From: Armatimonadota bacterium
Lineage (GTDB): Bacteria > Armatimonadota > SYMT01
Reading direction: 5' to 3'
Assembly: GCA_041690135.1 (NCBI GenBank)
Contig: JAWLHY010000012.1
Coordinates: forward strand, 128,001 to 192,000
DNA: 64,000 nt
Under the pieces are notes generated by a model. The model saw only the letters and a program-made list of their open reading frames with translations. It was not told where the DNA came from and did not search any database. How positions within the stretch are numbered: position 1 is the stretch's first letter; each line of letters opens with the position of its first letter. The translations under genes and the position numbers were made by a program. Positions 1,490-61,056 of this stretch are shown in pieces.

Positions 1490-1526
1490 GGGTGGTCCGA
1501 TCCATCTCTTGAAGCAGGAACCGAGT

Positions 1527-42067: not shown

Positions 42068-45000
42068 ATGAAGGCGCCAGCCAGGCCGAAAGTACCAGCG
42101 CCTGCGGGTGGCACCCTCCTAGCGTGGCAACGGCAAGTGGCGGAACTGAACCGCGAGATCCAACAGATCAAGCAGTGGCAACAGCAGCCCGGCACGGTCT
42201 ACGGCACCGCCCAGCGAATGATTGAAGCGCGGATCACCCGCATGAGCCTGCTGAAGCAGCGGATCGAGGAAGCGAAGCGCGGGGTTCGCACGCCGCCCAC
42301 CCATCCCCAATCGGTGGAGCGGCGGAGCGCGCAGGCAAAGCAAGCCATGGCGCGGTCCGCGGCCCACCGGCGCGCAAAGAATGCTTTCAACGCCACGGTG
42401 CCGATCGACCTGATCCGCCTGGAAGCGGAGCGGGAGAGCCCTCTGACCCAGCAGGTCGCGAGTGGTCTGGCGGGAGTGGTGGGTGCGGACCCCTACCAGG
42501 ACGAGTCGCGGGCCATTCTCCGCAAGCGGCAGCAGAAGGGCACGGCGCCGACCCTACGAGTCCAGCCCGCAGAGGTGGGCCAGATCCAGGCCCTGCGGCC
42601 CTATGTGGAGGACTTCCTGAACGCCACGCGCCGGGATTACCACACGCTGCGGAAGCAGGGGATCACGCCGCTTTCCGTGGACCGGCTGCGCGCGTATCTC
42701 CAGCAGGAATATGCGGGTCGCCGGAAGCTGACGGCGGCGCAGGAACGGGCGTTGCCGGGCATCCTCGCCGGGCTGCAAGTGCGGTGGGACGAGCGGGTGC
42801 GCGGCGCCAAGCGCGTAGGCGCCCGCCTGGCGGAGAATGCCGTCGGCGTGGCGACCGGCGGAGCGGGCCTCTTGCCGCGCGCGGCGGCGGCGGCCAGCGC
42901 GGGGATCGTCGCGCAGGCGTTCGTCGATACGAACCATCCGGAACTGACCGCGGCGGAACGGCTCCAGTCGGCCGGCACGGCGGGTCTGTTTTCGGCCGGT
43001 GCGGAGGGTCTCGGCGCCGCGTGGCAGGCAGCGCGCAAGGTGAAGAGCCCCACGGTCTCCCCGGGACCGGTATCGCCGCACCCGGTACCCGGGGCGCCAC
43101 ACTCCGCAAAGCCGGGGCCCGCCGGAGGGCCGTTCGCGGAAGCGAAGCCGGGGAACTCCCTTCCGGCAAAGGCTCCCTCTCCCGGCCCGGCTCCCCGGCC
43201 CCGCCCGGGAACGCGCGTGACGGTGAAGACGCCCCGCGGCGCCCGGATTACCGGGGAGGTCACCCGCTCCTCGCCGGACGGTCGGACGGTGTACGTGCGG
43301 AACTCCGCCACGGGTAAGGAGGTGCCGGCCAGGGTACCGCCAAAAGGCGCACCAGGCGTGCCCCAGAAGGGCGCGCCCGCGACACCCTCGAAAGCCCCTG
43401 CGAATCCGAAGCAGCCGGCGGTAGGCGGTCCCCAGCCTACTCCGGCACCGCAGCAGGCGTCTCCGGCCGCGAAGCCACCGTACCCGCCGGTGCCCGCGCG
43501 CCCCGCGGAACCCCCGGCCGTTACCGGATGGTCGGAGCCTACTCCCGCTTCGCAGGGAACCTTGACCACGGCGCAGCATGGGGGACACCCCGGCGACGAA
43601 CGCCCGCCTGGCAAAGCAGACGGCGAACGACGTGGCCGGGGCCGCCCCGGCTCCCCGCAGCCGGCCGGAGGGGGCACCGGGTAACCGCAGTGCTCCGGCG
43701 TCACCGGGCGCCACCGGCAACCGGAAACCGGGTACCGCACCGGACGCGACGGGCAACCCGAAACCCGCTACCGCACCGGACCCGGTGGAAGCACGGTCGG
43801 GCCAGCGCGGCGATACACCCCCCGCGGTGCCGGAGGCGCCGGTGACCCGGGGAGGCCCGGAACCGGAAGGGGTCCCGGCGAAAGCGACCGGATCTCGTCG
43901 GCGCCGTCCGGTGGAAGGGATGCACGACTCCGCCCTGACGGGAACGGCGGCCACCGCCACGACGCGCGCCGCCGCGCGCGCCACCGGGCGGACGGCACCG
44001 GGAATCCCCACCGGCACGCCCGTGGCCACCCCTACGGGCGGGAGCATGGCCTCCCCCGGCGGGCCACCTTCCCCCGGCGGAACACCCCCCACGGGGGGAC
44101 CGCCCCGCGGCGCGCCACCCGGTGCCCCCGGACAACCGCAACCGAGAACCACTACCGCCCCCGCGCAGCAGCCGGGGGCGGTCGGCGTTTCTGGCTCCGC
44201 GGGAGGGAGCAAAACCCCCACGTCCCAGAGCCAGGGAAGGCCTCCGGGACTCACCCCGGGTGGCCCCCCATCGGGGCCGCTTCGCCAGGCGGAGGTCGAG
44301 GAGGACATCCGCGACGTACTGGCGCGGCTCCGGAGCGGCGGCCGGAAAAGCAACGAGAACGGCGCCTTCACCCGCGCGGGGGATGAGCAGCGGCTGAGAG
44401 ACCTCCGGCAGGAGCGGCAGGACCTGGTGCGCGGCCGGGGCGGGCGGTACCGGGTGGGGGAGCCGGTGGTCGGCACCCGGCACAACGGGACAAGGGAGGC
44501 GCTGGTCTACGACGGGATGGCCAGCGACACGCACGCCTACGTGAGAGACCCCAGGACGGGACGGCGGCGTTCGGGAACGGTGCCGGTCGAGCGCCTGCGG
44601 ATACCAGCACCCGGTGTCCCCAACAGCCGTCGTGCAAAGCTTCATGCCCACTTGGATGCAGCGGAAGCCGCCGCCCGGCAGAAGTTGAGTGCGCTCCGGG
44701 CTTCGCGCCGGGGCGGGAAACTCGCTGCCGGGCTTGGCGGCTTTAGTGACCTGCTGGAGGAAGCACCGCACTGGATCGAGATCGGCGCGGTGCAGATGGC
44801 ACGTGGACTGCTCGAGTTCGACGCCTGGTCGCGCCGGATGCTGGAGGAGTTGGGGGACGAACTGCGGGCCACGGGGCGGAACGTGGATGAATTACTCCGG
44901 GAGATCTGGGGTCTCTCACGAAGAGTACATGGTGAAGAAACACATAGCCGTGGCAAACAAACGTCCGATCTGATTCTAGGGAAGAAGAGCCTCGCGTTCA

Positions 45001-45526
45001 CGCCCGCCGAAAGGGAATTAAAGCCGCTTCACTGAAGCCTAAGAGCAAGAAGGGTGCTGCCAACTACCTCAAAGCCGCGGAGGAGCGTGAGTATCCAGAT
45101 AGCGCTGCCTTCCCTTGGGGAGAGGGTGATTTTAAGGTGTGGTTCGACAGTGCGAATATGGAAACTTTCGTGGCGGCATGGACTGATAAGACCGTTAGAC
45201 TAGCTATCGAACGGCGGATCCGCCACCCCGGAGGTCTCCACGAATGGTTGATGACCGCACGGGCAGACAAATTCAAGGAGTGGGGTATGTCTATTGCGCT
45301 GATTCATGAGCTACGTACCCGCATAGTAGATGTGGAGTGGGTTAATCCATCTGGGCGCCACGGTGGAAAGGGTTCGGGGCGAGCTCACAGGGAAATCTTA
45401 AAGCTGATCGACGCCAGTGCGACCTATGGCGAGTATGTAGTTGCTTTGAACAAGTGGGCCGACAGTCGCCTTAAGGGTGGTCGGACTGCATTGCCTGATG
45501 GACTTCAGATTGTGGAGGGGAGATGA
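42068..45526 (+). pseudogene. Putative polymorphic toxin A, split by two compensating frameshifts (ORFs 42068-43684, 43578-45035, 44948-45526)
   Basis: Same architecture as 54899-59203: coiled coil, Pro/Gly linker, shared pre-toxin domain at ~44292-44597. Lower-GC C-terminal domain RHPGGLHEWLM...HGGKGSGRAH lies in a frame open from 44948. Confidence 0.6.
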
Positions 45527-46203
45527 CGGAGAGTAAGCTATACGAATTCTGGCAATCCGTTGTGGGCGTAGACGAAGATGAGAGTTGGTCTGAACCAGCC
45601 GACTTGGTCTTCCTTTTCCAGAATTTTCGTCCCCATGGTCAAGGAGTAGAGAGGATTCTCAATGGTTTTTGGGGAGCGAGGCAAATGCTTCCGCGATTGC
45701 TGGAAGTATACAAAGCCACTGCCTCAGGATGGGATGCGCGTCCAGTTGCATTTGATTACTTCCTAGTGACTGAACCTACGCACATCGATGACTCCCGCGT
45801 AGAGGAGTTAATCAGGAGCTACCTGGACAAGATGAAGCGTATGGCCGAAGAGATCAACTACAGGCAGACTGCGTCGAATCTATCGGTTGTTGAGCGAGTG
45901 CAGATCGTCCGGGCGCAAGATGCACCCCACTCATTGGATTTGAGCAGAACCGAGGACTTGCTTTATGCAATGCAGAGTGACTTTTTCAGCTTGACGCCGA
46001 GCCAACCCAGTGAACTGTGGTTGCTGGAACCCGCGTTGTATTCGATGGCCAATGATAACCCGCTTACGTACCATCTGCTCTGGCCCTTGAAGGCGAAAGG
46101 CAGTAGTGTAGAAGAACCGTTTCTACCCTACTTCGAACTTTGGAAACATGCAGTAACCCTCAGGTTGGATGCTGATCGGGCAACCGCTTATATTCCGGCA
46201 TGA
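45523..46203 (+). CDS. Candidate immunity protein for toxin A
   Basis: ATGA overlap with the toxin-domain stop; same lower-GC composition; no recognisable motif. Confidence 0.6.
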   Translation: MTESKLYEFWQSVVGVDEDESWSEPADLVFLFQNFRPHGQGVERILNGFWGARQMLPRLLEVYKATASGWDARPVAFDYFLVTEPTHIDDSRVEELIRSYLDKMKRMAEEINYRQTASNLSVVERVQIVRAQDAPHSLDLSRTEDLLYAMQSDFFSLTPSQPSELWLLEPALYSMANDNPLTYHLLWPLKAKGSSVEEPFLPYFELWKHAVTLRLDADRATAYIPA

Positions 46204-46592
46204 CGAACACAAGCATGGAGGGTGCCGAAACAAGTAGCCGGATCCATTTCTGGATGAGGTCGTGGGTCGGGCTGTCGGCACCCGCACTGGGACAACCGCG
46301 GCCACGACACTGGCCGGAAGCGTCGGCTCACCCGCCGGGGGAGCCCCGGCAGGCGGAGCACCCCCCACGGGGGGACCGCCCCGCGACGCGCCGCCCGGTG
46401 ACTCCGGACAACCGCAACCGAGAACTACCACCGCCCCCGCGCAACAGCCGGGGGCGGTCAGCGTTTCTGGGTCCGGCTCGGGGGCGTCGACGGCCGGGAG
46501 GAAGCGGGTTGGGCAGAAATTGCCCAGAAAGGGGCCTCTCGATGGCTAATTTCGCGCTGGTCGGACTATCTACCCATCGGGAGGACCGACCG

Positions 46593-47015
46593 GTGAACAG
46601 TGATTTCGAAACCCAACTGTCCGAATACTGCCGCGAGGCCCGGCTGACAGCCGTACAGACGGAGATCGTGGAGCTCTACCTGATCCTGGAGATGCCGCCA
46701 GCGCAGATCCGCTTGAAGACGGGGCTGAAACGGGTGAGCCAGGTGCAGGCGGAACTCGCCAAAGCGCTCCGGAGGCTGCAAGCCGTGGCGCCCGGCTTCT
46801 GGGAAGAGGGGAACGCCTTCCCCCGGCACCTGCTGGCGGCGGTGCGCAACCGTCCCGAACGCGACGAGCGGCCGCGGGACGTACGGGGCGTGACCCCGGA
46901 CCGGGAGGCGGAGCGGGCGCCGCGGGTGCGGATGGTGACCGCGGGCGACCGGCGCCTCCGGCAGGACCTCCGCAGCGCGGCCCGGTTGTGGGCGCGGTCG
47001 CGGAGTGGTGCATAG
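46593..47015 (+). CDS. Sigma-70 region-4-like HTH protein, possible late-operon regulator
   Basis: LTAVQTEIVELYLILEMPPAQIRLKTG..VSQVQAELAKALRRL; GGGAGG RBS before GTG; sits ahead of lysis/packaging genes. Confidence 0.55.
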   Translation: MNSDFETQLSEYCREARLTAVQTEIVELYLILEMPPAQIRLKTGLKRVSQVQAELAKALRRLQAVAPGFWEEGNAFPRHLLAAVRNRPERDERPRDVRGVTPDREAERAPRVRMVTAGDRRLRQDLRSAARLWARSRSGA

Positions 47016-47337
47016 GGACTACCAAGACACGAGTGCTTCAGTTGGGCGAGTAAACTCACGCCTACAAACAGCGACTGCCCACACCCACTCCGTGGGTGCC
47101 CGGCGCCCGCCTCCGTCGGCTGGAAACAACAATGCAGTTGTTTGCTGCCAAATCCTCAGGTTCCGCAGTCACACAACGCTTGATCGGGGTGTCCACTGCG
47201 CTCCGGGCGGCGCACTCATTAACATCACTCCCTGAATTACGGCAGGGTCAGGGCTTTGTACCGCTGGTGAGACGGCGCGCTCACCGGACCGTGATACCGC
47301 AGCGGGTATTTCTTTGCCTACCGGAAAGGGGGTGGGG

Positions 47338-47644: not shown

Positions 47645-47890
47645 ATGATGGACCTCTCTAATTGGGTGCTGGCCCTGCTCGCGCTCTCCCCGAAGACGAA
47701 GGGATTGGCGAAAGCGCTCCGGTGGCTGGAAGCCAGCATGGAGGAAGACGAGAAGCTGCGGGCACTGGCGCCGGGCGAACAGACGGTGCTGGAGCTGCCC
47801 GATGCCCTGGACCCGAAGCTCCGCTCCCGAGGCGGAAAGCGGTTTTCGGTCGACGCGGTGGTCGTAAAACGGCTGGGAGAAGAGCGATGA
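47645..47890 (+). CDS. Small hypothetical protein of the lysis cassette
   Basis: ORF between holin-like gene and endolysin, ATGA overlap with the latter. Confidence 0.55.
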   Translation: MMDLSNWVLALLALSPKTKGLAKALRWLEASMEEDEKLRALAPGEQTVLELPDALDPKLRSRGGKRFSVDAVVVKRLGEER

Positions 47891-48597
47891 GCGACTTCGA
47901 ACGAGCGATGGCCTTCGTGCTACGGCACGAAGGCGGCTACGTCCGCGACCCTGACGACCCGGGCGGCGAGACGAACCAGGGGGTTACGCGGCGGGTGTAC
48001 GACACGTATCGCCTGGCCCAGGGGCTGGTGACCCGCTCCGTGCGGCTGATCAACCCCGAAGAGGTGCGGGAGATCTACCGGACCCGCTACTGGCAACCCG
48101 CACACTGCGAGGGCATGACCTGGCCGCTGAACGCCGCGGTGTTCGACGCGGCGGTGAACACGGGAGTCCGCCAGGGCCGGAAGCTGCTGCAGCGAGCGCT
48201 GGAGGTGACGGACGACGGCCAGTGGGGACCGGAGACGGCCGCGGCCGTGCAGAAGGCGGCGCCGAAGGAGACGGCGCTCCGGATGGGCCGGGAGCGGATT
48301 GAGTTCTACCATCGCCTGGCGGAGGAACGACCGGCCCTCTCCAAGTTCCTGCGCGGCTGGGTGCACCGGGTCAACGCCTTGAGCGGGCTGATCGAAGAAC
48401 GGCCGGAGGAGACGCCGGTGACGGTGCTGGTGGACGGCCGCGAGCTTACCGGGGTGGCGACGCTGACGGAGCAGGGGGTCACGGTGCTGCTGCGGCCGGT
48501 GGCGGAGGCGCTGGGGGCGCGGGTGCACTGGGATGGGAGGACGAGGACCGTTAGGGTCGCTTCCGCGACGGATCAGGCGGTGGGCAGTAGGCAGTAG
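47887..48597 (+). CDS. Endolysin, glycoside hydrolase family 108, with C-terminal copper-amine-oxidase-N-like (stalk) domain
   Basis: HEGGYVRDPDDPGGETNQGVT, FDAAVNTG, FLRGWVHRV; C-terminal LLRPVAEALGARVHWDGRTRTV. Confidence 0.88.
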   Translation: MSDFERAMAFVLRHEGGYVRDPDDPGGETNQGVTRRVYDTYRLAQGLVTRSVRLINPEEVREIYRTRYWQPAHCEGMTWPLNAAVFDAAVNTGVRQGRKLLQRALEVTDDGQWGPETAAAVQKAAPKETALRMGRERIEFYHRLAEERPALSKFLRGWVHRVNALSGLIEERPEETPVTVLVDGRELTGVATLTEQGVTVLLRPVAEALGARVHWDGRTRTVRVASATDQAVGSRQ

Positions 48598-50260: not shown

Positions 50261-51217
50261 ATGCTGCGGATGTTGGACACGCCGGATGAGTGGGGGATCC
50301 TGGAGATCCGCGGGATGGAGCACACGCCGGAATACGACCCGGACGTGATCGGCGCGGGGATGAGCGTGCAGACGTACCGGCGGGAAGTGCTGGGGGACTG
50401 GAGCGCCACCACCGGGAAGGTGGTGTACCCCGAGTTCGGGGCGATCCACAAGGCGCTGGACCCCCTGCCGTTCGATCCGGGCCGTCCGCTGGTGTGCGGC
50501 TGGGATTTCGGCGGATCTCCCACCAGCGGGACCCCCGCCTTCGTACCGACCCAGCTCAACGCGCGGAGGCAGTGGCTGGTCTACCCGCCCCTGGTGCCCG
50601 GCGAGCAGGAGACGGTGGGGATCTATGAGTTCACCCAGTGGGTGGCCCAGTACCTGGCCGAGGAGTTCGCCGCCCCGGCCGGCCTCGCGCTGCCGGAGCT
50701 GAAGCTGGTCCACATCGGCGACCCCGCGGGTGACTACCACCCGCCCCGTACCCAGGGCATGACGAGTAGCCGCCTGGAGATGCGGAGCTGCTATCAGATC
50801 ATCGAGCGCGGGCTGCAGGTGGTGGTCGGGCACACGGAGTTTGGCCAGCCGATCGTGGAGGAGAAACCGGGCTTCGGCTGGCGCGTGAAGCGCGGCGAGG
50901 TGACCCTGGCGAAGCGGATGGAAGCGCTGCGCTCGCGGTTGACGATGCTGGTGGACGGCGGTCTGCCGGCGCTGGTGGTGGACCCGGCGGCCAAGATGAT
51001 CATCGACGGGTTCGAGGGCGGCTATCACTACCCGCAGCGCCAGGATGGGCGGTACGAGCTGGACCCGGCGAAAAACCACTTCTCCCACCCGATGAACGCC
51101 CTGGAGTACGCGGCGAGCCGGTTGGGGACGGCCTTCGCGCCGGAGCCGGACGACGAGGGGCCGGCCCGGGGCCGGGAGTTCACGACGCGGACGCCGGGGA
51201 GGCGGAGACCGGATTAG
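50261..51217 (+). CDS. terL: Terminase large subunit, RNase H-like nuclease half
   Basis: YRREVLGDW...VYPEF, CGWDFG, IGDPAG, KNHFSHPMNALEY. Confidence 0.75.
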   Translation: MLRMLDTPDEWGILEIRGMEHTPEYDPDVIGAGMSVQTYRREVLGDWSATTGKVVYPEFGAIHKALDPLPFDPGRPLVCGWDFGGSPTSGTPAFVPTQLNARRQWLVYPPLVPGEQETVGIYEFTQWVAQYLAEEFAAPAGLALPELKLVHIGDPAGDYHPPRTQGMTSSRLEMRSCYQIIERGLQVVVGHTEFGQPIVEEKPGFGWRVKRGEVTLAKRMEALRSRLTMLVDGGLPALVVDPAAKMIIDGFEGGYHYPQRQDGRYELDPAKNHFSHPMNALEYAASRLGTAFAPEPDDEGPARGREFTTRTPGRRRPD

Positions 51218-51536
51218 GACCATGATAACGATAAGGATAAGGAGAGGGATGGCAGAACCAGATCTCTTCTTATCGGGGCGGGGTGCGTGCTTCTGCGCTT
51301 TCGGCCCCCTACCCCGGCTATGCCGATTAGGATGAAGATGAAGATTAGGATAGGGAGAACGCACTTCGGCTGTCACGGCTTCTTCTCTGGACTCCAAGTG
51401 CGTGCTTCCGCGCTTTCGGCTCTCCCCCCAATCCAAGGGAAGTGCGAGTTCGGGACTGGTGCAGCTGGTGAGGCCGAGCTGATGTGAGGATTGACTCCGG
51501 TCAGGATTGAGATCACGAGATGACGCTGGTAGGTGC

Positions 51537-51568
51537 GGGCGACCTGTGGGGTCGCCCTTTTCTTTTTT
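51537..51568 (+). terminator. Rho-independent terminator upstream of the GroES-like gene
   Basis: GGGCGACC-TGTGG-GGTCGCCC-TTTTCTTTTTT. Confidence 0.75.
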
Positions 51569-51582
51569 CTGGGGAGGGCGGG

Positions 51583-52515
51583 ATGAGACAACGGTTGTTG
51601 GGGACAGTCCGGGAAAGCAACGGGCTGGAAGGTAGCGACGGCCTGGCGGGGTGGTACCAGCCGGTGGGGTCGTATTACCTGGTCCGGTTCCTCGAAGCGG
51701 AGACGGAGAGCGCGGGGGGCATTGCGCTGCCGGAGACGGCGCTGCCGGACGTGCAGAGCGCGCTGGTGCTGGCACACGGTTCCGGTCCGGTGCTGGCGAA
51801 CGGGCGGCGGTACCCGATGCAGGGCGCCGTGGGGGACGTGGTGGTGAGCCAGTCGTTCCGGTTCGAACGGATGGACGGGCAGGCGTTTCTCGCGGATGAG
51901 AGCCTGGTGGCGCTCCAACGGTGGGATGGCGAGGGGCATGGGGCGCTGCAGGCCGCGGGGGACTGGGTGCTGGTGCGGCCGGATGGAGCGAAGCAGGTGG
52001 ATGCGGAGACGCGCGCGACGGTGCAGGCGCGGGAGAGCGGCGTGCTGGTGGCCTGCGCGAGCGTGGGCGGCGGGCACCTGCGGGAGCAGCAGCGCGGCGA
52101 CGAGATCGTCCGGGAACTGGAGGCGCTGGTCCGGACCGAGGCGTTCCGGCAGCAGCCGAGCGAGTTCTATCGCCACCGCATGATCCACGACTACCTGGAC
52201 GGCCTGTGCCAGTGGGAACTGCAGGCGCTGGGGACGGCCCTGAAGCGGAAGGGCGAGACAAACTGGCGCCACTACGTGCCGCCGCGGCCCCTGGCCCGTG
52301 CGAGTGCGGGCGTGGTGGTGAGCGTGGGGCCGGGCCGGGTGCTGCGAGACGGCACCCGCCGACCACCGGGGGTGCGGCCGGGTGACCGGGTGCATTTCGA
52401 TCGGCAGTTCCAGGCGGTGGCGCTGTTGTCGGAAGGGGACAGTCTCTGGGCCGTGCGGGAGCAGTTCCTGGCGGCCGTCGAGGTGACGGAGGAGAAGACG
52501 AATGCAGGGTCCTGA
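51583..52515 (+). CDS. Tandem GroES/Cpn10-like co-chaperonin with a large insertion in the second domain
   Basis: YQPVGSYYLVR..ETESAGGIALPETA..VLAHGSG..GDVV, then GDWVLVRPD...[insert]...GVVVSVGPGRVLRDGTRRPPGVRPGDRVHF. Confidence 0.75.
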   Translation: MRQRLLGTVRESNGLEGSDGLAGWYQPVGSYYLVRFLEAETESAGGIALPETALPDVQSALVLAHGSGPVLANGRRYPMQGAVGDVVVSQSFRFERMDGQAFLADESLVALQRWDGEGHGALQAAGDWVLVRPDGAKQVDAETRATVQARESGVLVACASVGGGHLREQQRGDEIVRELEALVRTEAFRQQPSEFYRHRMIHDYLDGLCQWELQALGTALKRKGETNWRHYVPPRPLARASAGVVVSVGPGRVLRDGTRRPPGVRPGDRVHFDRQFQAVALLSEGDSLWAVREQFLAAVEVTEEKTNAGS

Positions 52516-54802
52516 GAGTTTATTCCCCCCGGAGGAGCGGTTTCCGGGCGCGGATCCGCGGAACCCATGGTCCGCGCAGCCGGGGCAGCCGGCGAACCTG
52601 ACCGGCGAGGCGCCGGGGTGGCCAGCGTCACCGGACGAGGAAGATGAAGACGAAGAAGCGGGGACTCCGGGCGGAGAGGAAGCGAGCCCGGCGCCCCCGG
52701 AACTGGGGCGGCTGGCGGAGACGGTGGACTACACCGTGCGGCTTTCCGAAGCGGCCCGGAGGCGGTTGGGAACGCAGATCTGCCGCGAGATCGAGCGGTA
52801 CGAGGCGGCGGTGCAGTCGCGGAAAGAGCTGCTGCAGGAGTGGCGGCGGGATTACGAGATGGTCCCCTCGGCCGGTCCGGAGCCGTGGGACCATGCCAGC
52901 TCCCTGCGGGCGCCGTTCGCGCGGGTGGCGGCCGACCAGCATGCCACGCGGTTGAACAGCCAGATCGTGCAGGCCGATCCCCCCTTCGCGGCGAGAGCCC
53001 GGACGCCCGAGGCGGTTGAACGCGCCCCGGCGATCGAGGAAGCCCTGGCGGCGATCCTGGAGGAGGCCAACTGGAAGGACGTGGCCCGGGAAGTGCACCG
53101 GGAGATCACGGCGGGGGCTGCCTGCCTGGTGTGCGTGACGTACGCGCGCAAGACTGCCCGCGTGCCGCGCCTGAAGGTGAACTTCGACGAGCAGAGCTTC
53201 GCCCGGCGGGTCCGCGGCGGCACGCCCGTGGAAGAGGCCTTCCGGGGAGCCGTGGAGTCGCGGCGGGACGGTACGCCCCGGGTACGGCTGGAGTTCGAAG
53301 ACACGGTGACCTACGACGGGGTGAAGCTCTCGTGCGTGCCGTGGGAGGACCTGATCGTGCTGCCCGTGAACGCCACCGACCCGGAGCACATCTGGGGCAT
53401 CGGCGAGCGGGTGCGGCTCCGCGGCTTCGACCTGCGGGAAGGCGAACGGGAAGGGCGTTATCTCAAGAATGCAGTGGAAGAACTCCTCCGCTCCCCCGGC
53501 GACAGCCCCGACGCGGACGACGTGGAAGACACCGAGGAATTCAGCGCGGTCGAGCTGGAGGACGGCGCGTATGAAGATTCTCTGTACCGGGAATACGACT
53601 GCGCCGAGCTGTGCTGGTACGACGACCTGGACGGCGACGGGTTCCAGGAATGGTACCTGGTGACGGTCCACCTCCCCACCGGGAAGGTCCTTCGGGCGCA
53701 GTACTCGCCCTACGAGCACGGTCGTCCCTACTACGTACTGTTCAACTACCTGCCCCGGTCGCGCCAGCTCTTCGGCCAGGGGGTGATCGAACTGCTGGCG
53801 ACCACCCAGGACGGCGCCACGGCCACCATCAACAACTTCAACGACCTGGTCTCGCTGCTGGTGGCGATGGCGGGGTCGTTCTTCGTGGACGAAGACAGCG
53901 GCATCGAGCCGGAGCGGTTCGTGTTCGCGCCGGGCCGGCCCGTGAAGTGCCAGGACCCGCAGCGGACCATCCTGCCGATGCCGGTGGCGCAGAACATTCC
54001 CGTCGCCCTGCAGGCCTGCCTCCAGGCGCTGGAGATGTACAAGACCTGGGCGGACCTGCTGACGGCGACCTCCAACCCGGTGGTGGGCCGGGAGACGGCG
54101 GGCCAGCACACGCTGGGCGAGCTGCGGATGGTGGTGGGCAACGCGATGGCCGTGTTCGAGGACAAGGCCGCCGGCGTGGCCCTGACGTGGGCCAAAGTGT
54201 GGGACCTGGTCCGCTGGACGGTGGCCCAGTACGCCGAGCACGGCCAGGTGCGGTACCGGAAGACGGCGCGGCCGGGGGAGGCCCCCGAGTTCAAGGCGGT
54301 GGACGCCGAGTTGCTGAAGGCAGAGATCGATCTCTCTCCGGCCGGCCTCGCCGAGTGGGCGGACGCCCAGGCGCGGGTGGCCCGGAACATGTTCGTGAAC
54401 GGCCTGCTGCTGCAGGACCCGCAACTGGCGACCGTGCCGGACGTGAAGCTGACGCTGCTGGAACAGACCCTGCGCGACGTGAAGCACCCCCGCGCGGAAC
54501 GGCTGCTGGAGATCATCCGGCAGGCCCTGGCGCAGCAGCAGCAGATGCAGCAGCAAATGCAGCAGATGCAGGCGCTAATGCAGGCGGCTGCGCCTCCCGG
54601 TCTCACCACGGAGAACGCGGAGGAAGGAACCCAATCAACCGCGGAGACGCAGAGGACGCTGAGGGGACGCGGAGAGGTAGGAAGAGAGGGACGGGACCAT
54701 TCGCACGCCCATGCTAACCAGTTGAGAGCGCAACTTGCGGAAGGAGATGCTGAAAGTACGCACGGAGCGGCTGGTAGGAGTGGCAGCCTGGCTCCCAGGT
54801 AG
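52502..54802 (+). CDS. Phage portal protein-like (podovirus/P22-type size)
   Basis: 766 aa after the terminase; ELCWYDDLDGDG..EWYLVT, PYEHGRPY, FGQGVIELL...Q, T..E.RM, Gln-rich tail as in podoviral portals. Confidence 0.7.
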   Translation: MQGPESLFPPEERFPGADPRNPWSAQPGQPANLTGEAPGWPASPDEEDEDEEAGTPGGEEASPAPPELGRLAETVDYTVRLSEAARRRLGTQICREIERYEAAVQSRKELLQEWRRDYEMVPSAGPEPWDHASSLRAPFARVAADQHATRLNSQIVQADPPFAARARTPEAVERAPAIEEALAAILEEANWKDVAREVHREITAGAACLVCVTYARKTARVPRLKVNFDEQSFARRVRGGTPVEEAFRGAVESRRDGTPRVRLEFEDTVTYDGVKLSCVPWEDLIVLPVNATDPEHIWGIGERVRLRGFDLREGEREGRYLKNAVEELLRSPGDSPDADDVEDTEEFSAVELEDGAYEDSLYREYDCAELCWYDDLDGDGFQEWYLVTVHLPTGKVLRAQYSPYEHGRPYYVLFNYLPRSRQLFGQGVIELLATTQDGATATINNFNDLVSLLVAMAGSFFVDEDSGIEPERFVFAPGRPVKCQDPQRTILPMPVAQNIPVALQACLQALEMYKTWADLLTATSNPVVGRETAGQHTLGELRMVVGNAMAVFEDKAAGVALTWAKVWDLVRWTVAQYAEHGQVRYRKTARPGEAPEFKAVDAELLKAEIDLSPAGLAEWADAQARVARNMFVNGLLLQDPQLATVPDVKLTLLEQTLRDVKHPRAERLLEIIRQALAQQQQMQQQMQQMQALMQAAAPPGLTTENAEEGTQSTAETQRTLRGRGEVGREGRDHSHAHANQLRAQLAEGDAESTHGAAGRSGSLAPR

Positions 54803-54833: not shown

Positions 54834-54861
54834 GGGCTGGGGGTATCCCCCGGCCCTTTTT
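54834..54861 (+). terminator. Rho-independent terminator between portal and toxin B
   Basis: GGGCTGGGGG-TAT-CCCCCGGCCC-TTTTT. Confidence 0.7.
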
Positions 54862-54898
54862 GTTGGACCGGCGAAACGGCGGCATGGGGAAGGGTGTG

Positions 54899-57800
54899 AT
54901 GATGAGAGACGGGAGCGGAAACACAGGTGCAGCAGGAGGGACAGCCTTTCACACAACCAGCCCATATGCGGGATCGATACGGAAGTATGAGCAGGAGCTG
55001 GCGCGGCTGGAGCGGAAGTCCGCCGAGTGGAAAGGGGTGATGAGCGACCCGACGCAGCCGCCCGGACGGCAGAAGGCGCTGTTCGGGAGGCTGCAGGGGA
55101 GTGAGGCGTCGGGCCGGCCGGCGCCGGGGACGGTGAACGCGCGGGCCTTGCGGCTGCGGGCGCAGATCGACGCGTTGAAGCTGGCCGAGCGCGTGTACCA
55201 GGCCGACCCGACGACCGAGACCCGGCGGCGGCTGGACACCTATCTGAACCGGGGAGCCCGGATCCGGGACGAGCGGGACTGGGTGTGGAACGAACGGAAG
55301 GCCCTCCGGACGGTACAGCAGGAAGTGGAGAAGCTGCAGGGCCTGCCGGGTTTCGGCAACGCGCAGACGCAGTATGCGGCCCGATATAACGCCTATTTGA
55401 AGCGCGGCGGCGCGCTGCGGGCGCTGGAAGGGCAGCACGAGGCGGAGCGGAAGACATTCCAGAATTACCAGCCCAAGCCGGCGCCTACCGCACCTCCGTT
55501 CGGCTCCAGGCGTACCCCTAGCCGGACGGAGCCGCCGCAGCCGGGGGTAATTCCCGCCGGGTTCGTTCCAACCCAAAACAGCAAGCCGACCACGACCCCG
55601 CCCGTGAAACCCCGCCCCGGTGCGTCGCGAGGCCGGGCGTTCAACCCGTTTAGCTACAACGTGTACGGTCATCAGCCGGATTTCGGCGAATGGGCGGGCC
55701 AGCAGGCGGTCAAGGGGATCGAGAGCATTGGGCGGGTCCTGGGGTTTGGCGGCACGATCGACGCTTCCAAGCTGCCCAGCAAACAGTACGCCGAGCTCTA
55801 CCCACCGGTGTATCTCTCCGAGGACGACCAACAGTTGGCCCGGGAACTGGCGGAGATCGGGCAACTGCGGCCCCACGTTGCGGGGGTGATCTCTCCCTTT
55901 GTGAAGGCCTACCGGTCGGAACTCGGGCGGCTCCCGCGTACAACGCAAATGCTCATTCAAGCTCAAGCGGCGGCAGGAGTCGGTGCGCCGGGCCCCTCGG
56001 CGGAGGAACTTCGGAAGGCCGTACCGCAGGAGGTCTACGATCAGCGTTATGCGGAAGCCATCGCGCGCAGCCTGGGCGGAATGAACGAGCAGGGGCTGAT
56101 CGCTTCCTTTGAAGCCAAGCTGGGCCGGCCATTGACCTCGCTGCAGAAGAAGGCCGTGGGCGCCATCGCCGCCGCAGAACGCCTCAAGCTGTTGAACGAG
56201 GGGAACTACACCCAGGCGCTTTCCGGTGACCTCCGTAACGTAGTGATCAGCTATGCCGCGGGGGCGGGGGCGGGGCAGTTCTTGCGGTATCTCAAGGGGC
56301 CGGCGGCCGGACTGGCGCAGAAGCTGGGCACGCGGCTCCCGCCGAAGACCCAGGCGGCGATAACGACCCCACTGGGCAAAACGTCCACCCAGGCGCAGCG
56401 GCTGACCGAGCCGGTCCGGAGGAAGGTCCCGCCCGTGGTGCGGGAAGCGCTGATCAAGACGCTGGACCCGGTGGAGCATACGGCCGCGGGGGTGTCCGAA
56501 GCGGCAATCCAGGCGTTTGAAGTGGCCTCCGACCCCCACCTGACCTCCGGCCAGCGAGCGGAAGCGCTGCAACGGGCGTTTGTGGAAGGGGCGAAGGCCA
56601 ACCTGGGCTTCGAAGCGATGCTCCAGGGGGTGCTCCTGGGCCGGCACGTCTGGCGTGGAAGAGGCAAGGTGGGTGGCGCCGACCTGTCGCGCCTGCGGGA
56701 CCAGGTGGCCAAGGATTTCCGCACCCTCGAGCCCCAGTTGGAAGTCGATCCGGAGGCGCTCGACCGGATGTCCGGAGTACCCGGCCTGGGGAAAGCCTAC
56801 GCGATCGTCCGAAGGGGCCAGGCTAAAGGCGCCAGGTTCGGCGTGGTGGAGGGGTATGGGATCGTGGAGATCGGGGCCGAGCAAAACGGCCGCGTGTTTG
56901 TGCGTGCCGTGGCCCAGCCCAGACAGCGGTTCGAAGTGCCCGCGGACCGCCTGCACGAACTCACGCTGCCGAAGCCACCCGTCGGCACGCGCCCACCCGC
57001 ACCCGCCGGAGCACCTACAGGGAAGCCGGATACCAGCCGGAGGACTCGCCCGCAGGGGGCGCCTCCCACGGTAAAGCCTGCAACGGTACCCCAGACAGCG
57101 GGCAACCCGAAGCCGGGCCCGAACGCGTCGATGCACCCACCGAACTCCATGGCGGGAGCCCCGAAACCGGGAGAAGGCCCGGCAGGAGGAGGCAAGAAAA
57201 CACCCGCAGAGAAGACAGGTGTCCCCTGGTCCGCCAAGCCCGTTGATGCGGGCACCGGCGAGGGGCACGGGGGGCACGGGGATCCCGGCGCCAGCCATGC
57301 GCCGCAGGGGATGGAACCGCCTGGGGACGGCCTCCCGCAAACCGTGCGGACCGCAGTGGCGGAACCCCCCTCCGGCCCAGGCAAGACGAGGAACGGTAGA
57401 GCGACCCAAGACCCCACGCACTCGCCTGGAAATGGGGCTCCCGATCCGCGTGCGGATTACTCCGCCACCCAATCCAGGAGTACGGTAGTAGATGACGGTG
57501 CCGGCTCCAGGAAGAGTGCAGAGGGTCCGGTTGGCGGCAAACCCGGACGCGACGGGGGAGCCGGTACCGGCTCCGGTCCGGACAGCCGCAGGAAACCGTA
57601 CGGCCGGAGTGGCTCCACCAGCTCTTCTGGGACACCGCCCCCCGGAGGCGCTCCGGCGGGAGGGCCGCCGCCCAATGCTGGAGGTGCTCCGCCGGGAGGG
57701 CCACCACCCAATGCCGGAAATACCGGCCGGTCAGCCCCGAAACCCACCACCGCCCCCGCGCAACAGCCGGGGGCGGTCGGCGTTTCTGGGCCAGGTCGAG

Positions 57801-59203
57801 GGGAGTTACCAACAACGCAAGGCCAGGGGAGACCGGTCCCGGTAGAGGCAACCGGGGATCCCGCGGGAGCGAAGCCCGGGCAGTCACCGGACACCCACCG
57901 CAGAACCGGACCGGGAGTGGCCCGGTCCGTAGAGGCTCTGCGGCGCGAAGTGGACGGGGAACTGCGGGAGGTGCTGAAGCGGCTGGAGAGCGGCGGACGC
58001 ACCGCGCAGGGAACGGGGCGCTTCACCCGTGCGGGGGATGTGCGGCGCCTGGAGGAGCTTCGCCGCGAGTGGCGGGACCTGGAGCGCGGCTGGGGCGGGC
58101 AGTACCGGATCGGTGAGCCGGTGCTCGGCATCCGGTGGGACGGTCGGACCGAAGCGCTGATCTACGACGGGATGGCGAGCCCCACGCACGCCTACGTGAA
58201 GGCCGCAGGGACGGGGTTGCGGCGGCCAGGCACCGTGCCGGTGGGGAGTCTTGCAGGTGCAATGGCGGCTCAGTCGAAGCTGAATGCTCCCACTACGCCA
58301 GCTACTTCGGGTGCTCCCACACAGAACTTGACACCTCCTTACATGCAAGCCATTCCGTTGAAACAGTCCATCGGGGGATCTGACAGTATTGCAAATGCAT
58401 CACATGGCAAGCGCCCGGAGGTGTTCGGTCGTCCCAGTGGGATTGAGCAGTATGCTAACGATCATCCGAAGCAGCACGCACAATCGAATGATCGAGGCGA
58501 GAGCATTCTCGCATTCCCTGAAAAGAATAAGAGCTCCAAGAAAGTAGAAGAGAAAACTGGTAAGGGCAAGAAGGACAAGAGGCCAGAGCAGATCAAGGAG
58601 TGGGAGGGTCGCCTTATTGACGAGTGGGGGTTGAAGGAAGTATATCTCGGTGAAACAATCCACATCGCGCAATGGACCTATACGGGTTTAAAGAGCCTGC
58701 GCGAACTCGGCCTACCACTTCCAAAACGTGTGCTCGTAGATGCTACATCGTTTGCGACGCGTGGCCGAGTGGCACAAGCGGACATTGACACTCGAAGTCT
58801 TCACGTCAACCCGCTCAGTAAGTATTTTTCCAGTCGCACTGCAATGCGAGAGCAGATTAGAGACGACTTCGATAGTGGATACGCTTCGACATCTCACGAG
58901 CATCACATCCTACGGCATGAGTGTGCCCACTTTGAGCACGCTGATGTGGTTGGGGCACAGGTTATTAAGGCGGAAATGACAGCACACGGAGCGTTCCCGA
59001 CAAACCTGGTTGGGGACGATGGAACACCCAAACCGATACCTCCTGGTGACCCAATCGATACTGCTCGCTTGGTAAGTGGCAGAGCAGTAGACAGTGCCTC
59101 CGAGTTTGTTGCTGAAGTGAGAGCTAAGGCTCTGAACGGTGAATCAGTTGAGGAACTTGTGCGAGAATGGTATTATTACTTTGGTGGGCCAACGCTTCCG
59201 TGA
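54899..59203 (+). CDS. Putative polymorphic toxin B (intact): coiled-coil N-terminus, Pro/Gly linker, pre-toxin domain, C-terminal zincin metallopeptidase
   Basis: HILRHECAH (HEXXH) plus downstream SEFVAE; abrupt GC drop at ~58250 where similarity to the 61.5-62.5 kb copy ends. Confidence 0.7.
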   Translation: MMRDGSGNTGAAGGTAFHTTSPYAGSIRKYEQELARLERKSAEWKGVMSDPTQPPGRQKALFGRLQGSEASGRPAPGTVNARALRLRAQIDALKLAERVYQADPTTETRRRLDTYLNRGARIRDERDWVWNERKALRTVQQEVEKLQGLPGFGNAQTQYAARYNAYLKRGGALRALEGQHEAERKTFQNYQPKPAPTAPPFGSRRTPSRTEPPQPGVIPAGFVPTQNSKPTTTPPVKPRPGASRGRAFNPFSYNVYGHQPDFGEWAGQQAVKGIESIGRVLGFGGTIDASKLPSKQYAELYPPVYLSEDDQQLARELAEIGQLRPHVAGVISPFVKAYRSELGRLPRTTQMLIQAQAAAGVGAPGPSAEELRKAVPQEVYDQRYAEAIARSLGGMNEQGLIASFEAKLGRPLTSLQKKAVGAIAAAERLKLLNEGNYTQALSGDLRNVVISYAAGAGAGQFLRYLKGPAAGLAQKLGTRLPPKTQAAITTPLGKTSTQAQRLTEPVRRKVPPVVREALIKTLDPVEHTAAGVSEAAIQAFEVASDPHLTSGQRAEALQRAFVEGAKANLGFEAMLQGVLLGRHVWRGRGKVGGADLSRLRDQVAKDFRTLEPQLEVDPEALDRMSGVPGLGKAYAIVRRGQAKGARFGVVEGYGIVEIGAEQNGRVFVRAVAQPRQRFEVPADRLHELTLPKPPVGTRPPAPAGAPTGKPDTSRRTRPQGAPPTVKPATVPQTAGNPKPGPNASMHPPNSMAGAPKPGEGPAGGGKKTPAEKTGVPWSAKPVDAGTGEGHGGHGDPGASHAPQGMEPPGDGLPQTVRTAVAEPPSGPGKTRNGRATQDPTHSPGNGAPDPRADYSATQSRSTVVDDGAGSRKSAEGPVGGKPGRDGGAGTGSGPDSRRKPYGRSGSTSSSGTPPPGGAPAGGPPPNAGGAPPGGPPPNAGNTGRSAPKPTTAPAQQPGAVGVSGPGRGELPTTQGQGRPVPVEATGDPAGAKPGQSPDTHRRTGPGVARSVEALRREVDGELREVLKRLESGGRTAQGTGRFTRAGDVRRLEELRREWRDLERGWGGQYRIGEPVLGIRWDGRTEALIYDGMASPTHAYVKAAGTGLRRPGTVPVGSLAGAMAAQSKLNAPTTPATSGAPTQNLTPPYMQAIPLKQSIGGSDSIANASHGKRPEVFGRPSGIEQYANDHPKQHAQSNDRGESILAFPEKNKSSKKVEEKTGKGKKDKRPEQIKEWEGRLIDEWGLKEVYLGETIHIAQWTYTGLKSLRELGLPLPKRVLVDATSFATRGRVAQADIDTRSLHVNPLSKYFSSRTAMREQIRDDFDSGYASTSHEHHILRHECAHFEHADVVGAQVIKAEMTAHGAFPTNLVGDDGTPKPIPPGDPIDTARLVSGRAVDSASEFVAEVRAKALNGESVEELVREWYYYFGGPTLP
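57220..58250 (+). repeat. ~1-kb direct repeat copy 1 (copy 2 at ~61506-62520; diverged partial copies at ~44080-44600 and ~46260-46470)
   Basis: Near-identical DNA and protein (PVDAGTGEGHG...GLRRPGTVPVGSL). Confidence 0.9.
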
Positions 59204-59257
59204 CTGTCGGCCAGAGTTTTGCACGGCACGTTTTTGACACGGAAGGAGAAGATCTCA

Positions 59258-59527
59258 ATGGAAAAGGACTTGAAGAGGCAGGAGCTTCCTTGGGACTATC
59301 AGTGTCGCTTCTGCGTACACTTTGATAAGGAGAATCCTCATAAATTGCGATGTGATGCGTTCCCTGATGGGATACCTCTGGAGATCGCCCATAACGTTGT
59401 AGACCATCGACTTGCCTTCCCAGGAGACAACGGCATCCGTTATGTATCGATTCCGGGAAAGCGGAAGTCACCCTTTATTGAGGATGAGGAGATGAGCGAA
59501 GTGAGGCAGATTGAGCAAAATCGTTGA
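59258..59527 (+). CDS. Small Cys-rich candidate immunity protein (CxxCxH...CxAFPDGIP...DH...PGDNGI)
   Basis: Motif read directly; follows the HEXXH domain; paralog at 61059. Confidence 0.7.
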   Translation: MEKDLKRQELPWDYQCRFCVHFDKENPHKLRCDAFPDGIPLEIAHNVVDHRLAFPGDNGIRYVSIPGKRKSPFIEDEEMSEVRQIEQNR

Positions 59528-59661
59528 TTAAATACTAAAGGGTATGGTCGCTCACCCAGTAGACTCCTGCGAATCCGGGCTGTATCTGCAGACTGGATCC
59601 CAGTAGCTCCGCCCCCGCGCAGAAGCCGGGGGCGGTTGCCGTTTCTGAGCCCGGCCCGGAG

Positions 59662-61056
59662 ATGGCAGGAGAAACTCCGGGGCTGGGGCCGCAGCAGGGG
59701 AAGCCGCAGCGGATTCCCCGGTCGCAGCAGGCCCCAGCACCGGTAACCACAGTCAGGACGCCGGTCGCGCCGCCGGAGCTTCCGGGTCCCGCGCTGGCGC
59801 AGCAGTTGCCGGCGGGGCAAAAGGTCCGGCACATCACCGGGCTGCGGGAAGCGGCGGACTGGCTGCCGTGGTTCCTCGCCGGGGGCGGGCCCCTGCCACG
59901 GGAGATCAAAGCCGGGGGCAAGGAGATCCTGGCGGAAGGGCGGGGACCGTACTCCGTGGTGATCGAGCTGGACCCTAGCCGGGTGACGGGGCGGCAGCTG
60001 CATGCGAAAAGCGAGGTGTACGGGCTGAACCACATCGGCCCGGATGCGGTGACAGCGTTCGTGGCGCCCAACCGGCTGGTGCTGCGGCGGTACCGGGCCA
60101 AGCCGGGGATGGAGGCCGCGTTCGACTTCGAGAACGCCCAGAAGGTGAAGCACGGCTACCGGGTGCTGCGAAGGGGACGGCTGACTCCGTTGCTGGCTAC
60201 TGGACCTCAGTTCACGGCAAGGCACGGAGTCCAGACCAGTGATGACAACATCTGGCGCGATGCTCCGGAGGTAGGGAGTGCCCGAGATCGGACGCTTGAA
60301 CGGCGCCCACTGCAAGCGCTTCCCGGCCCGGAAGACACTTCATCTGCTCGTGATACACCGTGGTCCAGGAGCGAGCAAAAGCGACAGCGGCGAGCCGCAG
60401 AGCGGGCTCAACGGGAGATTCGAGGTATCGATGAAGCTTCCTGGGCGGACTTCTCGTAGATGCCGGGTAGGATCGCTGAGCGGATTATCGACGAACTGGC
60501 TGCCTTGCAGCGAGACTTCCACTTCACCGTCCGGGGCATCTATCCTTCAGACCATCGGATCTGGTGGAGTGCCAGACCGCAAAGCACCAGTTACTTTGAG
60601 ACCGATGGACACCTGCTTGCCTATGGCGTTGATCGGTGGCATCCTGACGCAATTGAAGCCAGTCTCCGAGAACTACAGGCACAAGAACATACCAGCCAAG
60701 CGTCGAAATCGCTCGTCGCGGCCGTGGATCATGACGTATGCCATATGATGATCGATCAGGCTATTCAGCAAAGGAGCGGAAGCATCAAAGCCAGACTGGA
60801 GCAACGTGTTCAGGAACGTGTGGAACAGTACCGGCAGGAACTGGGAGAGGCTGCTATTGTGGAAGAGTTAGGAGATTACGCGTGGTATGGGACGCTGCGC
60901 AACCGGAATGAACCGGGCCGTGAGCCTCTGGACACGGCATGGAAGGAGACGATAGCCCAGGCCTTCTCCGCCTATCGTGCGGACCGCGAGACCGTGAGTG
61001 AGCCTACCGCGCGTCTGGTAGAGGATATCCTGGAAACGTTGGACTTGAGGAGGTAA
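59662..61056 (+). pseudogene. Orphan toxin cassette C with an in-frame TAG at 60457-60459 and a degenerate metallopeptidase motif
   Basis: ORFs 59662-60459 and 60460-61056 are in the same frame; VDHDVCH and ETIAQAF parallel the HECAH and EFVAEV of toxin B; junction motif at 59608. Confidence 0.55.

Follow-up and report, generated by a model that had tools for sequence, protein, structure and literature searches.

The PT-VENN of CdiA and the DPxGL boundary of Rhs are boundary motifs that occur with orphan cassettes, and gp16 of phage T7 is an internal virion (ejection) protein with an N-terminal lytic transglycosylase. In phages, MuF toxins have been described as being encoded immediately downstream of portal genes, with small open reading frames (ORFs) following 89.4% of 191 muf toxin genes (passages of PMC5576092; Jamet et al., 2017), and pre-toxin domains, PT-VENN being among those listed, have been described along with a MuF phage-capsid route (passages of PMC3482391; Zhang et al., 2012). 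Polyvalent proteins are presented as very long, multidomain proteins that are encoded among the virion genes of portal-terminase phages and are thought to be packaged and injected (passages of PMC5512222; Iyer et al., 2017). Such phage polymorphic toxins (MuF, polyvalent) are known mainly from single genes, with tip exchange and particle loading being largely conjecture. The present analysis concerns a stretch of 64,000 nucleotides (nt), referred to as the window, from an Armatimonadota bacterium (contig JAWLHY010000012.1, abbreviated C12, positions C12:128001-192000; GC 65%; assembly of 9.1 Mb in 25 contigs). Here a block of about 104 amino acids (aa), termed the junction domain, recurs where large proteins give way to variable tips, and gene content places its carriers in a phage-like element at ~C12:169.2-219 kb. 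It is proposed, with a probability of roughly 0.55, that this domain forms the final native module of a handle in a phage-borne polymorphic effector system, serving as a folded adaptor in the protein and as part of a tip-exchange homology block in the DNA.

Junction Domain and Carrier Proteins

Four copies of the domain occur in the genome, three of them in the window and all three on the plus strand. The copies, their carriers and the adjoining portal gene are listed below, positions without a prefix being those of the window.

44292-44597, plus strand: domain copy 1, in P0004 (translation, alignment)
57947-58252, plus strand: domain copy 2, the feature under study, in P0003 with E1030 as first residue (translation, alignment, AlphaFold, Foldseek)
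62218-62523, plus strand: domain copy 3, in P0005 (translation, alignment)
C12:216078-216389: domain copy 4, in P0007, 24 kb past the end of the window (tblastn)
52502-54802, plus strand: portal gene (PF23899 SU10_portal, E 1.2e-20; phrog_1216 portal, E 2e-17)
54860-59203, plus strand: P0003, ORF of 1447 aa, probable start M14 at 54899 giving 1434 aa; giant protein directly 3' of the portal gene
C12:212382-217754, beyond the window: P0007, 1790 aa, with SLT N-terminus, Zeta_toxin-like stretch, linkers, domain copy 4 and tip
42068-43684, plus strand: P0006, probable start M116 of ORF 41723-43684; N-terminal part of a second giant-protein gene
43578-45035, plus strand: P0004, 485 aa, with linker, hairpin motif, domain copy 1 and a helical tail common to P0007
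61522-63600, plus strand: P0005, 692 aa, orphan cassette with linker, hairpin copy 5, domain copy 3 and a DUF3626-type tip

Recurrence of the block, the starting point of a sequence-only reading of this DNA, is borne out by the translations, which show it in three long plus-strand ORFs (P0004, P0003, and P0005). The positions originally assigned to copies 1 and 3 are in frame and the end of copy 2 at 58252 is correct, but the start of copy 2 had been placed at 57945, which is 2 nt out of frame and reads with stops. The count of three copies is likewise right for the window but not for the genome, where a fourth copy is carried by P0007. A tblastn search of the 9.1-Mb genome with the P0003 copy gave four strong matches (E 5e-72 to 4e-26), the 16 remaining matches listed having E values of at least 1.1, and chance is thus excluded as an explanation of the recurrence. 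All four copies fall inside 46 kb of a single contig. Over 114 aa, identity to the P0003 copy is 84% for P0005, 55% for P0004 and 56% for P0007, and two subtypes can be recognized, one formed by P0003 and P0005 and the other by P0004 and P0007. Among the four copies 55 of the 114 alignment columns are invariant; the GTVPV string at the junction is the same in all four, as are the barrel residues D84, S88, and H91. The ratio of nonsynonymous to synonymous substitution rates (dN/dS) in the domain ranges from 0.32 to 0.55 and is below 1 in all six pairs.

P0003 begins 58-97 nt past the portal gene (GC 0.688) and matches no Pfam family at E ≤ 1, no NCBIfam model and no PHROG; when aa 250-700 were used as a query only P0003 itself was recovered. 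A strong terminator-like hairpin with a T-run (54834-54856) stands between the two genes, so that transcription of P0003 may depend on read-through or on a promoter of its own. As with MuF toxins, this is a large gene directly after the portal gene, with a variable C-terminal effector region and a small ORF next to it, and minor capsid proteins encoded next to the portal gene in Lactococcus and Mycobacterium phages have a tip of the same DUF3626 type as that of P0005. Unlike MuF toxins, P0003 has no detectable MuF domain, an array of spare cassettes with a common handle is present together with the new junction domain, and a second, SLT-bearing carrier (P0007) is encoded at the opposite end of the element. 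The word “orphan” does not occur in the main text of the MuF survey (PMC5576092).

The N-terminus of P0007 matches the SLT lytic transglycosylase family (PF01464, E 2.2e-31) and phrog_342, an “internal virion protein with endolysin domain” (E 1.4e-27, profile positions 17-177 of 1235), and its gene closes the block of structural genes. In both respects it resembles internal virion (ejection) proteins, but only the SLT part matches, the remainder of P0007 including domain and tip having no counterpart; used as a query, its middle part was found in one of 401 genomes, its own. A Zeta-toxin-like P-loop domain (aa 859-955; PF06414, 1.2e-7) lies mid-protein between two Pro-rich linkers. By joining an SLT domain, this P-loop domain and an HExxH-containing end, near capsid, adaptor and large structural ORFs, P0007 is reminiscent of polyvalent proteins, from which it differs in that passages on the latter (PMC5512222) hold no tip-plus-immunity cassettes with homology handles. 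The terms “DUF3626,” “Zeta toxin,” “SH3,” and “linker” each occur zero times in that text.

At the left end of the element, P0006 matches P0007 (aa 132-590 against aa 237-737; 29% identity, E 4e-40) and P0004 is homologous to P0007 aa 1126-1477 (59% identity, E 2e-106). The two frames differ and overlap at 43566-43684, and a single frameshift would fuse them into a P0007 paralogue of ~1000-1100 aa without the SLT and Zeta-like parts. From these alignments P0006 and P0004 look like a shorter, frame-broken paralogue of P0007; the break may mean that the gene is broken, that the sequence contains an error or that the frameshift is programmed. No likeness was detected between the N-terminal parts of P0003 and P0007, the best BLASTP match between P0003 and P0006, the paralogue of the P0007 N-terminal part, having an E value of 0.35. 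In both P0003 and P0007 the domain sits 70-75% along the protein.

Variable Tips and the Compositional Break

Homology ends at the last codons of the domain and GC content falls there from 0.72-0.73 to 0.52-0.54, which agrees with the role as a constant/variable boundary that had been proposed for the block. In P0003 the domain (0.729) is followed by a tip of 0.523 and in P0005 (0.716) by a tip of 0.538, while in P0007 the domain (0.712) precedes a helical module of 0.657 and then a tip of 0.557. Since homology and GC content change at the same point, the end of the domain can be read as native DNA meeting foreign DNA. The DNA repeat family ends at 44601, 58256, and 62527 in the three window copies, 4 nt beyond the last Leu codon. 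Its beginning is less closely tied to the domain: the DNA of P0003 and P0005 is 81-89% identical from ~57213 and ~61499, respectively, through the Pro/Gly-rich linker and the domain, so that similarity begins before the domain does. Within the window, the three copies do lose their similarity just past GTVPVxxL, as had been claimed, but P0004 and P0007 remain alike for ~110 residues more, which form a common helical module. Identity across the domain and this module is 59%, with a 24-aa deletion in P0004 exactly at the junction. What follows the module at the end of P0007 is unrelated and contains HExxH; the tips of P0003 and P0007 are themselves unrelated by BLASTP (best E 1.5). The P0003 tip and the small ORFs that follow the tips are located as follows.

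58253-59203, plus strand: variable tip of P0003, GC 0.523, HExxH string, no homologue found
59258-59527, plus strand: P0010, small ORF after P0003, GC 0.485, phrog_33375 (unknown function, E 4.4e-7), immunity candidate
63626-63916, plus strand: small ORF after P0005, GC 0.546, no family, immunity candidate
45137-45526 and 45523-46203, plus strand: two small low-GC ORFs after P0004, GC 0.541 and 0.507, no family above threshold, immunity candidates

The P0003 tip consists of ~90 low-complexity residues and then ~220 residues with the HExxH string; Pfam, phage tblastn and other searches gave no homologue, the protein search returning only P0003 itself. In P0005 a Ser/Thr/Gly-rich stretch is followed by a DUF3626-type domain (PF12294, E 1.9e-8, 34.1 bits against a gathering cut-off of 27, covering only profile positions 23-116 of 301). 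A tblastn search of 50,697 phage records with P0005 matched 20, all through aa 444-689. They include gp9 of Mycobacterium phage Tierra, annotated “capsid maturation protease and ADP-ribosyltransferase” (33.7% identity, E 2e-8), a “minor capsid protein” of Lactococcus phage P1045 (E 1e-10), Bacillus phage SP-15 (E 3e-17) and Nodularia phage proteins annotated DUF3626. In Tierra and P1045 the matched gene lies directly 3' of the portal gene and precedes a small hypothetical ORF, and it is the C-terminal end of its product that P0005 matches; MuF toxins have been described with the same layout (PMC5576092). The P0005 tip is thus DUF3626/ADP-ribosyltransferase-like by homology, recurring on portal-adjacent minor capsid proteins of unrelated phages. 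DUF3626 is reportedly also mentioned in a paper on Salmonella SopF. SopF is an ADP-ribosyltransferase. The same phage search with P0003, the C-terminal part of P0007 and P0008, a cassette described below, returned no match.

The small ORFs downstream of the tips have GC contents of 0.485-0.583, and those after P0003, P0005, and P0004 match no known immunity family in Pfam or PHROG; the ORFs next to the end of P0007 lie on the opposite strand. P0010 shows a CxxC...C pattern and may be a recurrent phage immunity-type protein, judging by its PHROG match. The arrangement as a whole has much in common with CdiA and Rhs, including a conserved block right before the variable toxin, downstream orphan tips that carry the block, and a compositional break at the junction; the orphan tips of CdiA and Rhs have immunity genes next to them, and small candidate ORFs are found here. 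Unlike PT-VENN and DPxGL, the domain is a folded module of ~100 aa and not a short motif, and no sequence relationship exists between them (no Pfam match). The carriers, moreover, are phage proteins and not substrates of type V or type VI secretion. The analogy with VENN or DPxG boundaries in the sequence-only reading has to be moved to another setting, as the lysozyme, SU10 portal and adaptor, terminase, capsid and phrog_342 matches indicate a phage-like element and not a classical secretion system.

Hairpin Motif and Cassettes

A perfect hairpin of 28 nt (CCGCCCCCG, a 10-nt loop, CGGGGGCGG) lies upstream of the domain and encodes APAQQPGAV, or more generally APAQ(Q/K)PGAV. When up to 4 substitutions were allowed, it was found eight times on the plus strand of C12 (172155-218622), and neither on the minus strand nor on any of the remaining 24 contigs. 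The eight copies agree in both stem arms and vary at only three loop positions, and every copy is inside an open frame. The copies have a mean pairwise identity of 0.95 within the hairpin, compared with 0.50 over the 30 nt before it and 0.40 farther downstream. Folded as RNA, the motif has an energy of -38.4 kcal/mol (z-score -3.85). Six copies begin in the window.

44155-44182, plus strand: hairpin copy 1, in P0004
46431-46458, plus strand: hairpin copy 2, in a truncated linker fragment (46238-46549) cut off by a repeated leader-like element
57750-57777, plus strand: hairpin copy 3, in P0003
59609-59636, plus strand: hairpin copy 4, at the start of class-B cassette P0008 (unit 59609-60459, no domain)
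62021-62048, plus strand: hairpin copy 5, in P0005
63997-64000, plus strand: hairpin copy 6, running off the window (C12:191997-192024) and followed by a truncated class-B cassette

Four copies are followed by the domain 35-50 residues on, three by a different sequence designated class B (59609, 63997, and C12:218622), and one (46431) by a truncated unit. In class-B cassettes the hairpin is followed not by the domain but by a conserved GLGPQQGKPQR...GLREAADWLPWFLAGGG. P0008 is full length and has a native-like GC content of 0.678; the other two (C12:191997-192340 and C12:218622-218761) are truncated, and for the class-B sequence of P0008 no homologue or family was found. Truncated fragments are present at 46238-46549, C12:191960-192340, and C12:218414-218761. 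At hairpin copies 4 and 6, homology starts at the hairpin itself, right after a unit made of tip and small ORF. The differing sequences that follow indicate that the hairpin, more than the domain, is the universal mark of a cassette. The hairpin was also considered as an ordinary intrinsic terminator and rejected on weak evidence: the terminator scan did not call it, and the canonical terminators of the element have T-runs (49482, 51537, 54834).

Predicted Fold and Distribution

AlphaFold2, supplied with the four-sequence alignment, predicts helices at residues 5-24 and 38-56, a small beta-barrel at 68-113 and a low-confidence loop at 31-33, with a mean predicted local distance difference test score (pLDDT) of 84.8 and a predicted template modeling score (pTM) of 0.73. 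The domain is therefore, as a predicted fold, a helical hairpin followed by a Tudor/SH3-like barrel, in agreement with the fold that had been guessed from the sequence; the Tudor/SH3 resemblance itself is weak. In a Foldseek search of the PDB the best matches were Tudor domains aligned to the barrel portion only (TDRD3, E 5.3e-3), with none at E ≤ 0.001. The barrel (residues ~61-114) superposes on the TDRD3 Tudor domain with an rmsd of 2.2 over 54 columns and a TM of 0.74 on the target, a weak score. VIA, a structural search independent of Foldseek, gave no match at Z ≥ 8 among 48,161 chains; an MscS-like channel came first (Z 7.2), 53BP1 and PWWP barrels scored Z 4.9-5.1, and the Tudor, PWWP and chromo level of ~Z 5 is that of the background. 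In that search the combination of such a barrel with a helical hairpin ahead of it was found in no structure above background. The BFVD search returned small uncharacterized phage proteins with scores similar to those of the Foldseek PDB matches. While superposing weakly on TDRD3, 53BP1, and PWWP, the domain differs from Tudor/PWWP/SH3 barrels in having no sequence similarity to them and no conserved aromatic cage, and the predicted fold says little about function. Duplication of a barrel-like stretch before the first linker (P0003 653-704, P0006 494-542, P0007 647-700) was considered as the origin of the junction barrel and set aside, hhalign giving a probability of 3.6%.

The impression that this is not a named family has held up. 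For the 114-aa domain Pfam gave no family at E ≤ 10, and hence no match to PT-VENN, DUF637 or similar profiles, and NCBIfam gave none; there was no PHROG match for P0003 (at E ≤ 0.01), P0004, or P0006, the PDB sequence search gave only two chance-level matches, and the ESM Atlas yielded no usable match. The notion of a widely conserved pre-toxin family, in contrast, has to be abandoned. A profile of the four copies searched against 1.84 billion representative proteins had six matches at E ≤ 1e-3, of which four were the genome's own copies; the other two, P0013 (a repeat protein of 1817 aa) and P0014 (115 aa), were judged spurious on reading. Against the longer proteins of a 5.8-billion collection (8000 candidates scored) the same profile had four matches, all in this genome. 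In whole-genome searches the domain was found in one of the eight genomes of its poorly sampled order, and 7 of 401 genomes in a sample of the phylum were matched, six of them partially (E 1.1e-3 to 8.5e-3). On these searches the domain is lineage-restricted, being known so far from one element and its close metagenomic relatives, which limits the generality of what can be concluded from it.

Those relatives were found in two metagenome runs, X1 (root) and X2 (soil), with contigs ~85-99% identical in DNA to parts of the element; no RNA run was listed with a match. One X2 contig covers 48920-57644. A second spans 57748-59659 at ~90% DNA identity, from the hairpin through the domain, tip and small ORF to the next hairpin. 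Positions 62677-64000 and 45335-46001 are not covered by contigs of either run, and 58675-59341 not by those of X1, such gaps carrying no evidence. Contig joints such as 61792 to 57529 were considered as rearrangements and are explained by mapping to a paralogous copy. As far as these sequence comparisons reach, close relatives of the element exist in soil and no distant ones are known.

Functional Interpretation

Copy number, predicted fold, junction position, GC break, phage context and tip homology, all of them observed or computed, lead us to infer a system in which effector tips would be packaged into particles and delivered. P0003 and P0007 are probably virion-associated giant proteins, P0003 occupying a MuF-type position and P0007 resembling internal virion (ejection) proteins. 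Both end in the order Pro/Gly-rich linker, hairpin (APAQQPGAV), domain and differing low-GC tip, and P0005 and P0004, which begin inside the linker, are spare cassettes with the same handle. The small low-GC ORFs after the tips of P0003, P0005, and P0004 are probably immunity genes that would protect against toxicity of the tips. The linker-hairpin-domain stretch would act as a homology handle through which tips are swapped by recombination, as with the orphan cassettes of CdiA and Rhs, and the domain protein would form a compact folded adaptor between disordered linker and effector. The architecture is that of a polymorphic toxin system, with a body in common, foreign tips that vary, small ORFs behind the tips and spare cassettes that bear the handle, and the phage-virion character of the carriers groups the system with the MuF toxins and polyvalent proteins.

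Several findings weigh against this proposal. The dN/dS of the domain is not below that of the linker (0.29-0.65, from a less reliable alignment), which gives no sign of special constraint on the domain at the protein level. The four copies lead into no more than three kinds of sequence, one of which, in P0004 and P0007, is not a tip but the helical module that these two have in common. Half of the eight hairpin-marked cassettes are without the domain, which is thus not needed at every junction; these four cassettes and the extra module in P0004 and P0007 together count against an obligatory protein-level signal. Apart from DUF3626, no tip matched a recognizable toxin family in the Pfam and phage tblastn searches, and Pfam and PHROG profiles did not detect a MuF signature (Phage_Mu_F or Phage_min_cap2) in the N-terminal part of P0003. 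No homologue of the domain was found outside the genome in the profile and whole-genome searches, which confines its co-occurrence with diverse tips to one lineage. Finally, no integrase, recombinase or replication gene was seen among the ORFs scanned, which did not include every small ORF, and comparison of the element ends for att repeats gave only matches of 11 nt or less, so that the element may be defective or domesticated.

The domain could instead be a packaging or docking signal that binds a head or portal component, such that any carrier, P0004 and P0005 included, is loaded and ejected. Linker and domain are indeed the sole element common to all four proteins, and an open frame with an ATG is present in both P0005 and P0004, an AAG of P0003 corresponding in position to the ATG of P0005. 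Neither ATG, however, is preceded by a purine-rich Shine-Dalgarno-like sequence, which most of the neighboring starts compared do have and the lack of which fits silent cassettes. P0003 and P0007, in addition, already possess large N-terminal parts ahead of a domain that lies 70-75% along them, and class-B cassettes have the hairpin without the domain, and a packaging signal is accordingly considered unlikely. Pre-toxin domains have been described as possible proteolytic processing sites (passage in PMC3482391), and a cut at or after GTVPVxxL, made by the domain itself or by a phage or host protease, would free the tip in the target cell. The invariant GTVPV at the junction and the invariant D84, S88, and H91 in the barrel are in line with this; nevertheless, no peptidase or autoproteolytic fold was matched in the structural searches, a barrel of ~50 residues is an improbable enzyme, and a further shared module follows the domain in P0004 and P0007, making such processing quite unlikely.

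An arginine-rich domain whose barrel aligns with Tudor, PWWP, and chromo-type barrels (among them 6kco, solved with ssDNA, Z 5.1), with retroviral integrase chains among the weak Foldseek matches, brings to mind binding of nucleic acid, in which a basic hairpin and an SH3-like barrel, in the manner of integrase C-terminal domains, would tether effectors to packaged DNA so that both leave the capsid. This is held to be highly improbable, as all structural matches are below the reliable level (Foldseek E ≥ 5e-3; VIA Z ≤ 7.2), acidic residues largely offset the arginines by eye, and there is neither a conserved aromatic cage nor a known DNA-binding motif. The domain might also have no function of its own, the copies being leftovers of segmental duplication and gene conversion in a decaying prophage and the boundary recording an insertion of foreign DNA. 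Confinement of the family to one element of one genome would be expected of a relic of this sort; the linker has a higher dS (0.34-2.3) than the domain (0.21-0.67), which fits homogenization by conversion, and decay is suggested by the P0006/P0004 frame break, the truncated fragments and the lack of an integrase among the ORFs scanned. Four open frames, a confidently predicted fold and dN/dS below 1 in every pair nonetheless point the other way, as do the 55 invariant columns at 55-84% identity and the retention of the 57748-59659 stretch in ~90% DNA-identical soil relatives, and a mere relic is regarded as very unlikely. A more elaborate proposal takes the hairpin as a dedicated recombination site; the element would then have a cassette system, similar in its logic to integron attC arrays or to the conversion of silent pilin cassettes, that reassorts effector and immunity units between the two virion proteins, with the domain as the protein-level dock for loading and ejecting tips; in this full form it is decidedly unlikely.

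The kind of system is already known; what is new is the family-less junction domain and its use by two different giant phage proteins. A phage element bearing an array of spare cassettes is also new, and so is the conserved, translated hairpin. No description of such an array on ejection-type proteins was found in the main texts of the open-access literature. One element here unites two probable virion proteins and several spare cassettes with one junction module, one DNA hairpin and a sharp compositional break, which makes phage tip exchange directly testable at this locus. It also adds a new folded pre-toxin module from a host lineage that is poorly sampled, with eight genomes of the order in the collection searched.

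Phage-like Element and Its Surroundings

Besides the portal gene, the following phage-type ORFs are found in the window.

47662-48597: GH108 lysozyme with a peptidoglycan-binding domain (Pfam)
50261-51217: terminase-like ORF (PHROG)
51520-52515: Cpn10-like ORF (Pfam, 1.2e-17; PHROG co-chaperonin)

Beyond the window come a Phage_capsid_4 protein, two SU10_adaptor ORFs and four large ORFs (980, 848, 210, and 729 aa), and then P0007. On the left the element is flanked by a host-type PAS/GAF histidine kinase, which ends at 41113, and on the right, from C12:219948, by a host-type LysR regulator, a sulfatase and a ThuA-like gene. An aminotransferase gene, tried as a guide to host taxonomy, drew matches from mixed phyla and was uninformative. 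With the portal protein as query, no locus was found in genome contigs and three weak loci (24-28% identity) were found in viral contigs. The Cpn10/GroES-like ORF is unusual in that it has 331 aa, with the Cpn10 domain at aa 47-113, and is thus much longer than a normal GroES; it overlaps the start of the portal gene.

A non-coding-looking element of ~190 nt occurs three times with 81-94% identity (41264-41417; 46482-46588 plus 47223-47318; C12:194861-195041). The copies lie upstream of P0006, of the lysis/terminase/portal block and of the capsid/tail block, respectively, and in each, several short inverted repeats accompany a mini-ORF that begins with MA(K/N)FALVGLST. There is no Rfam match to it, the scan of 41000-64000 giving none at E ≤ 0.1, and the element could be a leader common to the late operons or a regulatory RNA. 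The second copy is interrupted by an insertion of 634 bp (46589-47222), which is missing from the X2 soil contig that joins 46588 to 47223. Positions ~425-555 of the insertion constitute a short repeat with copies scattered across at least 16 of the genome's contigs, and the insertion lengthens the mini-ORF into a longer ORF that has a helix-turn-helix look by eye. A hint at the host lineage lies at 113-3017 of the window, where a PSD1/DUF1553 gene adjoins a DUF1501 gene (E 1.6e-88 and 1.8e-149), a pairing much expanded in Planctomycetota and their relatives.

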